Origin: a virus | Taxonomy: Duplodnaviria; Heunggongvirae; Uroviricota; Caudoviricetes | Direction: 5' to 3' (one strand) | DNA: 16,681 nucleotides | IMG/VR virus record: IMGVR_UViG_2541047909_000002 | Shown here: one piece after another, positions 14,613 to 16,681 of the stretch | Layout: every line of letters starts with the position of its first letter | Numbering within the stretch: the first letter of the stretch is position 1 | The notes under the pieces: model-generated | Told to the model about the DNA's origin: nothing | The model's database searches: none | What the model saw: the letters and a program-made list of their open reading frames with translations, nothing else | Made by a program: the position numbers and the translations under genes

Positions 14613-15397
14613 GAATATATTCCTTAAAATATTATTGATTTTCATTGCGATATTGTATGTCTGATTCAGGATATGTTGACTTATACATCGGTTTTGTCTG
14701 GGTTATTGGATATGCCAATCCCTAATTTTATTAGAGCATGACTAAAAATGCTGAATATGATAAGGAGCGAAGTGATTATCAGTATGCTGTTCATATAGCC
14801 TCGAATTAGTAATGTGTTATATATGATATAGTTGACAATTTTTATCCTGGGTGTTCTTAAAGTTCGTAGATAAACATTGTCGTTTCAGGTATACAGGAAT
14901 GCTAACAGATGGCGGCAAAAATCAGGCGGTTTATGGCGCAAGCTGAAGTGGCAACTGCAAACTATCTTATGCAGAGACTCTACACGGATTGGGTTTAAAA
15001 GTATACATAGATAACAGTTTTTATCTGAAGAAGAAAAATATCAAGGTGATATAGCCTATATGCCTTTGATGTGGAGGAATGAATGTGATGGGAGTGATGT
15101 ATCTGAATAGTTGAAAAACCGCAGACACGCCTTATGCAAGAACGTGCTGCGGTTGGCTGGTAAATTTTTCGATAGTGCGAGTATTGAATGATTTCCAGCC
15201 GTTATTGATTTTACGCGTAACTCCATGAAAAAACTACTTATCTGTTGAGGAGTTTTTTTGGGGCATATATGGGACAGAAATGGGCCCCAGATAGACACTG
15301 AGATCGAACTTAGGATGCTTTTTAAAAAATGCAACTATCTGAAAAAACCTAGAAAACGCCAAGGAAACCACAGGATGGGAAAAAACACCTGTGAATT

Positions 15398-16681
15398 ATG
15401 GATTTCCAGTTATATTCGCTCGGCGCAGCGTTAGTGTTTCATGAAATATTTTTTCCTGAATCATCAACGGCAATGGCGTTAATTCTGGCAATGGGAACCT
15501 ACGGTGCAGGTTATGTGGCGCGTATTGTCGGAGCATTTATTTTCGGCAAAATGGGCGACAGAATAGGGCGTAAAAAAGTGCTCTTTATTACCATCACCAT
15601 GATGGGGATCTGTACCACCTTAATTGGTGTGTTACCGACCTATGCACAGATTGGTGTTTTTGCACCCATCTTGCTGGTGACGTTGCGTATTATTCAGGGG
15701 TTGGGTGCAGGTGCGGAAATTTCCGGTGCCGGTACGATGCTGGCGGAATATGCGCCAAAAGGTAAGCGCGGAATTATCTCCTCATTTGTGGCTATGGGAA
15801 CTAACTGCGGAACCTTGAGCGCAACGGCAATCTGGGCCTTTATGTTCTTCATTCTCAGTAAAGAGGAACTGCTGGCGTGGGGATGGCGTATACCGTTCCT
15901 GGCGAGTGTTGTCGTGATGGTCTTTGCTATCTGGTTGCGTATGAATCTGAAAGAAAGCCCGGTCTTTGAGAAGGTTAACGACAGTAACCAACCGACAGCA
16001 AAACCTGCACCTGCTGGTAGCATGTTCCAGAGCAAATCCTTCTGGCTGGCAACAGGGCTGCGTTTTGGTCAGGCGGGTAACTCCGGGTTAATTCAGACTT
16101 TCCTTGCAGGCTATTTAGTGCAGACGTTATTGTTTAACAAAGCAATTCCAACAGATGCATTGATGATCAGTTCGATTCTCGGCTTTATGACCATTCCGTT
16201 CCTTGGTTGGTTATCCGATAAAATTGGTCGCCGGATCCCGTATATTATTATGAATACCTCCGCGATTGTGCTGGCATGGCCAATGCTTTCTATCATTGTA
16301 GATAAAAGCTATGCCCCGAGCACCATTATGGTTGCACTGATTGTGATTCATAACTGTGCGGTGCTGGGATTATTTGCTCTGGAAAACATTACCATGGCAG
16401 AAATGTTCGGCTGTAAAAACCGCTTTACCCGGATGGCTATTTCTAAAGAAATTGGTGGTCTTATCGCTTCCGGTTTTGGTCCTATCCTGGCGGGTATTTT
16501 CTGCACCATGACGGAATCCTGGTATCCGATCGCCATTATGATCATGGCATATTCAGTGATTGGTTTAATCTCTGCGCTGAAAATGCCAGAGGTGAAAGAC
16601 CGTGATTTAAGTGCGCTGGAAGACGCTGCGGAAGATCAACCGCGTGTTGTAAGAGCTGCGCAACCTTCCAGAAGTCTGTAA
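15398..16681 (+). CDS. ydfJ: MFS transporter (metabolite:H+ symporter-like), N-terminally truncated by prophage insertion (427 aa as read)
   Basis: 427-aa hydrophobic multi-helix ORF with MFS motifs (GRKKVLFITI..., WLSDKIGRR); begins inside the conserved first-helix region with an in-frame stop 2 codons upstream; matches the interrupted K-12 ydfJ. Confidence 0.8.
   Translation: MDFQLYSLGAALVFHEIFFPESSTAMALILAMGTYGAGYVARIVGAFIFGKMGDRIGRKKVLFITITMMGICTTLIGVLPTYAQIGVFAPILLVTLRIIQGLGAGAEISGAGTMLAEYAPKGKRGIISSFVAMGTNCGTLSATAIWAFMFFILSKEELLAWGWRIPFLASVVVMVFAIWLRMNLKESPVFEKVNDSNQPTAKPAPAGSMFQSKSFWLATGLRFGQAGNSGLIQTFLAGYLVQTLLFNKAIPTDALMISSILGFMTIPFLGWLSDKIGRRIPYIIMNTSAIVLAWPMLSIIVDKSYAPSTIMVALIVIHNCAVLGLFALENITMAEMFGCKNRFTRMAISKEIGGLIASGFGPILAGIFCTMTESWYPIAIMIMAYSVIGLISALKMPEVKDRDLSALEDAAEDQPRVVRAAQPSRSL

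Follow-up and report, generated by a model that had tools for sequence, protein, structure and literature searches.

The stretch of DNA analysed here (the window, 16,681 nt) carries a Qin-like cryptic prophage, beyond which lies the 3' part of the host gene ydfJ. With very little room for doubt, it is best explained by the integration of a lambdoid phage of the Qin/mEp460/HannyBb type in ydfJ, with the junction, the att core, the displaced 5' end and the hairpin as reported below; we encountered no observation that contradicts this integration model. A right-hand end of a Qin-type prophage in ydfJ is real, ordinary and well known, and both the integration and the 28-codon truncation have already been published (PMC6379469): the insertion of Qin at the 5' end of ydfJ cost the gene its promoter and 28 N-terminal codons. 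Of what is described here, only a conserved, covarying hairpin module next to attP is mildly new. The features discussed in the following are collected in Table 1.

Table 1. Features at the right-hand prophage end (positions within the window)
Feature	Position	Strand	Basis
pinQ	13472-14062	-	RefSeq-type annotation (MG1655, HSP425); right-end gene order
ydfK, prophage cargo gene for the 77-aa cold shock protein YdfK	14379..14612	-	RefSeq (HSP425 L010 26379-26612; MG1655)
ynfT, 37-aa small-protein gene, YnaM/YnfT family	14681..14794	-	annotation and translation
Conserved bulged hairpin, 12-bp stem, terminator-type; left border of the module common to different prophages	15117..15154	-	folding, covariation, breakpoints
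Conserved segment, corresponding to the dinI 3' untranslated region in relatives	15155..15233	-	alignment, IMG/VR scan
dinI-like relic MPQKNSSTDK*, 10-11 codons	15234..15266	-	alignment against O157-type prophages
TGGGGCA and TGGGACA at 11-bp spacing, candidate arm-type integrase sites	15259..15276	+	matching pair in the P' arm of attP; inferred
Phage P arm of attR, integrase-distal	15267..15395	.	contiguous with core and P' arm/int in free phages
In-frame TGA, phage-side sequence	15392-15394	+	TGAATT in attP, TGAATTT in attB
att common core TTATGGATTTC, 11 bp	15396-15406	.	identical in attB, attP, attL, attR
ydfJ', 3' 1284 nt of the MFS transporter gene (MHS family; YdfJ residues 29-455)	15398..16681	+	ORF list, annotation, profiles

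The attachment core and its recombined flanks

Over its full length the window matches the E. coli HSP425 chromosome at 100% identity. The blocks that align with MG1655 show 98.5-100% identity and correspond to MG1655 1631002-1646737, i.e. the cryptic prophage Qin together with ydfJ; the window departs from MG1655 by an IS1414 insertion and by an stfQ segment that is divergent. The prophage qualifies as Qin, since its insertion point in ydfJ is that of MG1655, its gene content is colinear with MG1655 Qin and the junction is identical. In detail, Qin (Kim) of K-12 MG1655 (feature 1632277..1652745) is integrated in ydfJ at the same site, has the 9-nt ydfJ overlap (ATGGATTTC) in common with the window and shows the same order of genes at the right end (pinQ, ydfK, ynfT, ydfJ') at 98.5% identity. 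Both the 28-codon truncation of ydfJ and the attL remnant ynfP are found in MG1655 as in the source of the window. The HSP425 copy is unlike MG1655 Qin in its IS1414 insertions and the divergent stfQ region. It also differs at its far end, where both integrase and excisionase are intact, in contrast to the intQ pseudogene of MG1655, which is disrupted by IS2. Measured from core to core, the HSP425 prophage is 26.9 kb long (source locus L010, 509-517 to 27398-27406).

To locate the junction we aligned the four types of attachment site, namely attB of strain AR_0086 (cgcTTGAATTTATGGATTTCcagtta), attP of HannyBb and mEp460 (cctgTGAATTATGGATTTCaagagt), attR as present in the window and attL of MG1655 and HSP425. 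Around the common core attB reads ...gcgcTTGAATTTATGGATTTCcagttata... and attP reads ...cacctgTGAATTATGGATTTCaagagtca.... In attR the P side lies to the left of the core and the B' side to the right, and in attL the B side lies to the left and the P' side to the right. The insertion is thus that of a temperate phage bounded by attL and attR, which share one core and have flanks recombined as B-P' and P-B'. When one T indel is allowed, the similarity at the core widens to TGAATT(T)ATGGATTTC (15392-15406); this position reads TTT in attL and TT in attR, as expected for a crossover to the right of the indel. The sequence-only reading had expected the junction and the att core within 14646-15397 and had proposed to find them by comparison with an E. 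coli lacking the prophage. This comparison indeed places the core, which touches the right edge of that stretch but does not lie in its body: its leftmost 2 nt end the 750-bp stretch, and its other 9 nt open the transporter ORF. Therefore, the Met29 ATG is part of the core, the TGA stems from the phage arm and everything up to 15395 is phage DNA. In line with this, the annotation of MG1655 sets the Qin boundary 9 nt into ydfJ.

In strain AR_0086, ydfJ encodes 455 aa and lies 57 nt after rspB in a co-directional rspA-rspB-ydfJ-ydfI cluster. Homology of the window to this uninterrupted allele begins at ~15392. A 301-nt probe across the AR_0086 junction was used to count intact junctions in 5426 complete E. 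coli genomes, 2009 of which (~37%) span the junction uninterrupted and hence have an unoccupied attB. Among the sampled rows from occupied genomes, the two halves of the probe are split around positions 4001-4019 of locus L001. The Qin-type arrangement (ydfK ... ydfJ'), for which at least 80% probe coverage was required, is found in 1985 genomes (~37% of the complete E. coli genomes), and the remaining genomes carry other prophages or rearrangements at the ydfJ site. This site is a much-used integration hotspot of lambdoid phages.

The 84 nt of ydfJ that are missing from the window, which had been proposed to lie at the other prophage end, are found there: in HSP425 they are located at attL, 26.9 kb away, and adjoin int and xis. 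At attL, codons 1-31 of ydfJ run into phage DNA and form a 36-aa ORF (MTIEKHERSTKDLVKAAVSGWLGTALEFMDFKSHAC*), which is annotated as ynfP in MG1655. The integrase gene, which lies outside the window (L010 555-1835; Arm-DNA-bind_2 and Phage_integrase domains), is 38 nt away from the attL core and is followed by the excisionase gene (L010 1870-2121; DUF1233), i.e. in the source genome integrase and excisionase stand beside one att site.

Phage DNA and a conserved hairpin to the left of the core

The stretch 14646-15397 had been described as non-coding, a description that does not hold. It contains the annotated ynfT gene, a dinI relic and the P arm. The neighbouring ydfK is annotated from 14612, and the 88-aa ORF that reaches to 14645 is only the longest-ORF extension of this gene. 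The sequence from 14646 to 15409 is present in the GenBank phages Tritos, HannyBb, PhiR42_1 and mEp460 at 97.6-99.3% identity, and in the two that were inspected, HannyBb and mEp460, it is contiguous with the core, the P' arm, int, xis and exo. These four phages carry the attP from which the attR of the window derives. Their genomes are complete (45-49 kb) and include the structural genes, whereas the prophage of the window is decayed and contains many IS elements. Compared to other prophages the cargo on the left differs, and a common module starts from 15116-15133. For example, O157:H7-type ydfJ prophages (e.g. that of strain 99_0849, with nleC as cargo) share with the window the core, the P arm (~88% identity between 15246 and the junction), the hairpin and the 3' segment; unlike the window, they have kept an 80-aa DinI-like gene in place of the relic and carry other cargo to the left of the hairpin.

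An intact DinI ORF (Pfam PF06183) is not present in the window, in contrast to the homologous prophages with their 80-aa DinI-like ORF. The start codon and two codons are retained in the relic along with a degenerate 3' end, and ~198 bp are deleted relative to the O157-type prophages at the same att site, whose homologue of the relic matches Pfam DinI. A length difference of 198 bp likewise separates loci with a ydfJ-type core that have dinI from those that do not. In the O157-type ydfJ prophages and in phage 2H10 the shared module includes a DinI-like gene of 80-83 aa on the minus strand. A 92-aa ORF on the minus strand of the window (15056-15334) was considered as a dinI homologue and rejected, as it shows no similarity to the DinI-like proteins of loci L007 and L008. 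By eye, no LexA box (CTGT-N8-ACAG) was seen between the dinI relic and the core. In the alignment of phage 2H10, which has a different int, LexA-type boxes were seen by eye upstream of its dinI. In relatives, the conserved segment next to the relic is located between the stop codon of the dinI-like gene and the hairpin. By pattern scan, its 24-nt core occurs in 120 IMG/VR stretches; a dinI-like ORF lies just upstream on the minus strand in 64 of the 116 classifiable occurrences, counted over the IMG/VR stretches and the window, and is absent in the other 52.

TGGGRCA pairs spaced by 11 bp are found in both arms of the attachment site. The pattern, which was chosen post hoc, has five matches in 7.8 kb, and four of these are clustered at attP. 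Judged from this spacing and clustering, the pairs may represent arm-type integrase sites.

The 8-bp perfect inverted repeat that had been reported at around 15118-15155 exists, with its coordinates corrected by one base: its arms are AACCGCAG at 15117-15124 and CTGCGGTT at 15147-15154. It is unrelated to att: the hairpin is located ~240 bp inside the phage and also occurs in phages with other att sites, namely phiP27 and 2H10. On the minus strand the stem is followed by UUUUU, two U of which are able to pair (plus-strand A-run 15114-15118), and the tail on the plus strand is not U-rich; most variants of the hairpin have their U-rich tail on the minus strand as well. The hairpin is situated downstream of int across attP, and downstream of dinI in those relatives that keep dinI. 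From its stem and U-run we infer that it may act as a terminator. The G-U wobble asymmetry (mean MFE of -20.4 for the plus strand versus -18.0 for the minus strand) does not decide which strand is functional, because it is mixed among variants, with individual ones favouring either strand.

Together with the adjacent segment the hairpin makes up a ~120-nt element (15112-15233, minus strand), i.e. a near-invariant single-stranded part and a covarying hairpin, which is widespread near attP in lambdoid prophages. This element could be an sRNA, whether independent or originating from a 3' UTR, that was kept after the loss of dinI for a regulatory role of its own, a reading that we consider unlikely but worth setting out. 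In its favour, ~60-80 nt of the segment are near-invariant while the arms of the hairpin covary, the stem is followed by a minus-strand U-run in most variants, and the segment is retained in the 52 of 116 loci that have no dinI ORF. Moreover, a precedent exists in DinR of Klebsiella, an sRNA that arises by processing of the 3' end of the dinI mRNA (PMC10907235), and the 3' end of the Rfam family CssrB has the same hairpin, albeit on the opposite strand and with a score short of the gathering threshold. This match to RF02799 (CssrB, a Shigella sRNA) reaches 28.7 bits against a threshold of 76, covers the plus strand at 15014-15151 and is due to the 3' hairpin only; a literature search on CssrB retrieved nothing relevant. 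At gathering thresholds, Rfam returned no family in the region, and with E-values up to 10 admitted, CssrB was the sole match. Against an sRNA, a promoter scan performed at chance level and gave no sigma-70-like site for the minus strand of the P arm, from the core to the relic. In addition, the IMG/VR loci were picked by an exact match inside the segment, which inflates its apparent conservation, and this conservation could also mirror the recent common ancestry of a mobile module. It is equally doubtful, judged from sequence and structure, that the element constitutes an undescribed prophage regulatory RNA, be it a DinR-like 3'-UTR sRNA or a sib-like retroregulator of int; if the latter were true, the linkage of retroregulator and int would be switched by integration and excision.

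That the inverted repeat is a chance feature without function is very unlikely. Such a reading can draw on the simulations, in which a perfect inverted repeat of 8 bp (loop of 3-40 nt) turns up in 36% of first-order Markov sequences modelled on the stretch, so that the repeat on its own is not beyond chance. It can also draw on a simple terminator scan of 14300-15500, which returned 0 sites; the scan missed the hairpin because its loop is longer than 8 nt and its stem is bulged. Yet folding extends the repeat to a bulged stem of 12 bp (-20.7 kcal/mol, z = -3.5), and the homologues preserve it: in an alignment of 55 distinct variants, which was fitted to a covariance model and therefore leans toward structure, 92% of the pair cells are standard and 6 of the 11 pairs are changed on both sides. 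None of 500 shuffles reached the observed covariation score or paired fraction, and slid controls scored far lower; the observed number of pairs changed on both sides was reached by 21 of the 500. The covariance-model-guided alignment was used because RNAalifold obtained no structure from 56 variants aligned with plain MAFFT, where a 1-nt bulge had misaligned the 3' arm. Taken together, the z-score and the covariation across phages identify the hairpin as a real conserved element.

There is next to no chance that the phage/host junction or the att site is located at the inverted repeat (~15118-15155) or close to it. Viewed alone, the position does look like a junction, since the homology with several other ydfJ prophages begins at 15116, 15119 or 15133. 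However, this breakpoint divides phage cargo, which varies, from a phage module that is conserved, genomes with intact ydfJ match from ~15392 only, free phages are colinear across 14500-15409 and the same hairpin is found in the phages with other att sites mentioned above. The limit of homology to intact genomes, the colinearity of the free phages and the four-way att alignment rule this location out.

The truncated transporter gene

The transporter ORF of the window starts with ATG and encodes 427 aa, compared to 455 aa in intact ydfJ. It passes the curated cut-offs of Pfam MFS_1 and Sugar_tr and scores 453.5 bits against NCBIfam TIGR00883 (metabolite/H+ symporter; cut-off 443.45). In the intact protein, residues 23-418 align with profile positions 1-400 of TIGR00883, whereas in the window ORF residues 1-390 align with positions 7-400. 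The window ORF hence lacks a complete N terminus with all of TM1 from profile position 1 on, and the intact allele has 28 additional residues (MTIEKHERSTKDLVKAAVSGWLGTALEF). A search of PDB sequences with intact YdfJ found no relatives at 1e-5. Only a single codon (ATT) separates the in-frame TGA from the ATG of the ORF. This ATG at 15398 is the internal Met29 codon of intact ydfJ and no true start codon; it heads the longest ORF because the phage side provides the in-frame TGA. As a result of the insertion, ydfJ' is cut off from its own start codon, its ribosome-binding site and the upstream rspAB genes.

In these points the sequence-only reading was accurate. It had stated that the transporter ORF begins within the conserved first helix, as borne out by the TIGR00883 alignment from position 7 only, that a stop codon lies in frame immediately upstream, and that a prophage boundary inside an MFS transporter gene has displaced the 5' end, which agrees with the uninterrupted alleles and with the 84 nt at the other end. 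It had also named a complete ydfJ contiguous with this sequence in the same genome as an observation that would speak against it, and the source genome contains none.

It is extremely improbable that the 427-aa ORF is a complete native gene, with the upstream 750 bp as its intergenic or promoter region and no displacement: although RefSeq annotates a 427-aa CDS in MG1655 and the ORF still exceeds the TIGR00883 cut-off, the 455-aa allele is contiguous with rspB in 37% of the genomes, the upstream sequence is phage DNA that is present in free phages, the profile alignment starts at position 7 and the 5' 84 nt reside at the other prophage end, so that the intact alleles, the four-way att alignment and the attL fragment rule it out.

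Annotations of the truncated gene differ. In HSP425 and other genomes PGAP labels ydfJ' as a pseudogene ('incomplete; missing N-terminus'), and RefSeq keeps the 427-aa ORF of MG1655 as a CDS named 'putative transporter YdfJ'. Furthermore, ydfJ has been listed among differentially expressed genes in one study. Given the MG1655 CDS and this study, some expression of truncated ydfJ is conceivable. Nevertheless, ydfJ is probably inactivated, as suggested by the loss of 28 residues, of the ribosome-binding site and of the upstream operon context.

Integration model and relevance

According to the preferred integration model, a phage of the Qin/mEp460/HannyBb type inserted into codons 27-31 of ydfJ by recombination of attP with attB across the 11-bp TTATGGATTTC, mediated by the phage tyrosine integrase. 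The window represents attR, leading through ydfK, ynfT, the hairpin, the dinI relic and the P arm to the core, with host ydfJ beyond. Through integration the gene loses its 28 N-terminal codons, which encode the cytoplasmic tail and half of TM1 (the first half), together with its start codon and ribosome-binding site, and it is unlinked from the co-directional rspA-rspB; the 5' fragment of ydfJ persists at attL as the 36-aa ORF (ynfP in MG1655).

In phage lambda, int is transcribed toward attP, and the tI/sib hairpin beyond the att site becomes unlinked from int on integration. The phage type of the window is lambda-like in that int is directed toward attP, with its stop codon 38 nt from the core, and in that a stable hairpin with a U-run lies ~240-280 nt past the core on the int strand, from which integration separates int. 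It likewise has a heterobivalent integrase with an arm-binding domain and paired direct repeats in both arms. By analogy, the layout resembles lambda tI/sib. Unlike in lambda, relatives have a dinI-like gene between attP and the hairpin, and at the sequence level nothing resembles lambda att or sib. In the circular phage, leftward int transcripts would cross the core and the P arm, because int is transcribed toward attP, as well as dinI where present, and would end at the hairpin; after integration the hairpin would no longer be linked to int. The hairpin would thereby stand between convergent units, i.e. tail-fibre and cargo genes transcribed rightward and int/dinI transcribed leftward, and judging from this arrangement it probably also stops the convergent transcription from the left.

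The conserved hairpin module by attP could conceivably act as a regulatory RNA. For the host, integration may exert a polarity effect on the rspAB-ydfJ-ydfI cluster, and the expression of ydfI may be affected because the co-directional rspA-rspB-ydfJ-ydfI cluster is split. The relevance is chiefly one of annotation: in K-12-like strains, the 427-aa 'YdfJ' is a remnant truncated at its N terminus, and its ATG is an internal codon within the att core.

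Mobile elements and gene content of the window

The rem gene is interrupted by a 402-aa ORF, the transposase of the IS256-like element IS1414; this copy is absent from MG1655 Qin. Directly to the left of the window, the source genome (E. coli HSP425, L010) carries another. The tfaQ-pinQ region holds a full-length match to Rfam IS009 (RF02111, 221 bits). No alignment to MG1655 Qin is obtained for the stfQ/tail-fibre segment adjoining the PinQ invertase, over which the source-genome annotation consists of tail-fibre fragments only. The cspA-thermoregulator model (RF01766) matches twice, over the 5' UTR of cspB and over that of cspI, and gives no match upstream of the cold-shock gene ydfK.

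Feature coordinates
Feature	Location	Strand	Bits
IS1414 in rem	window 2132-3340	+	
IS1414, source genome	L010 10751-11959		
IS009	window 13142-13340	+	221
Unaligned tail-fibre segment	window 12207-12611		
RF01766, first	window 6346-6738	+	159
RF01766, second	window 9248-9633	+	113
Second hairpin-module copies	L020 3018-3071		
	L031 6977-7030		
	L051 6435-6488		
	L068 1539-1593		
	L015 10963-11018		
'Capsid protein' fragment	L008 2512-2577		
IS1A, CUWW10	L003 3288-3985		
rspA-rspB-ydfJ-ydfI	L001 1621-6840		

Further copies of the hairpin module

In some IMG/VR phage contigs the hairpin module is present in a second copy, located about 1-1.6 kb away from the first. At a dinI-like-bearing locus (L008), the conserved dinI 3' segment is overlain by a PGAP annotation, 66 nt long, of a pseudogene fragment named 'capsid protein'. 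This stretch is homologous to window positions about 15144-15210, and the call is probably a spurious one produced by protein alignment.

The right prophage end and the interrupted gene cluster

In strain CUWW10 (L003) an IS1A is inserted 46 nt left of the ydfJ' ATG (junction at window 15352), the cargo that lies at the right end between rrrQ and the phage P arm is lost, and ydfI is split by a second IS1A; the insertion near ydfJ' and the cargo loss represent secondary decay of this prophage end. In prophage-free genomes (L001), rspA, rspB, ydfJ and ydfI are co-directional, separated by gaps of 11, 57 and 88 nt, and form a probable operon. Thus, Qin-type integration splits a probable operon.
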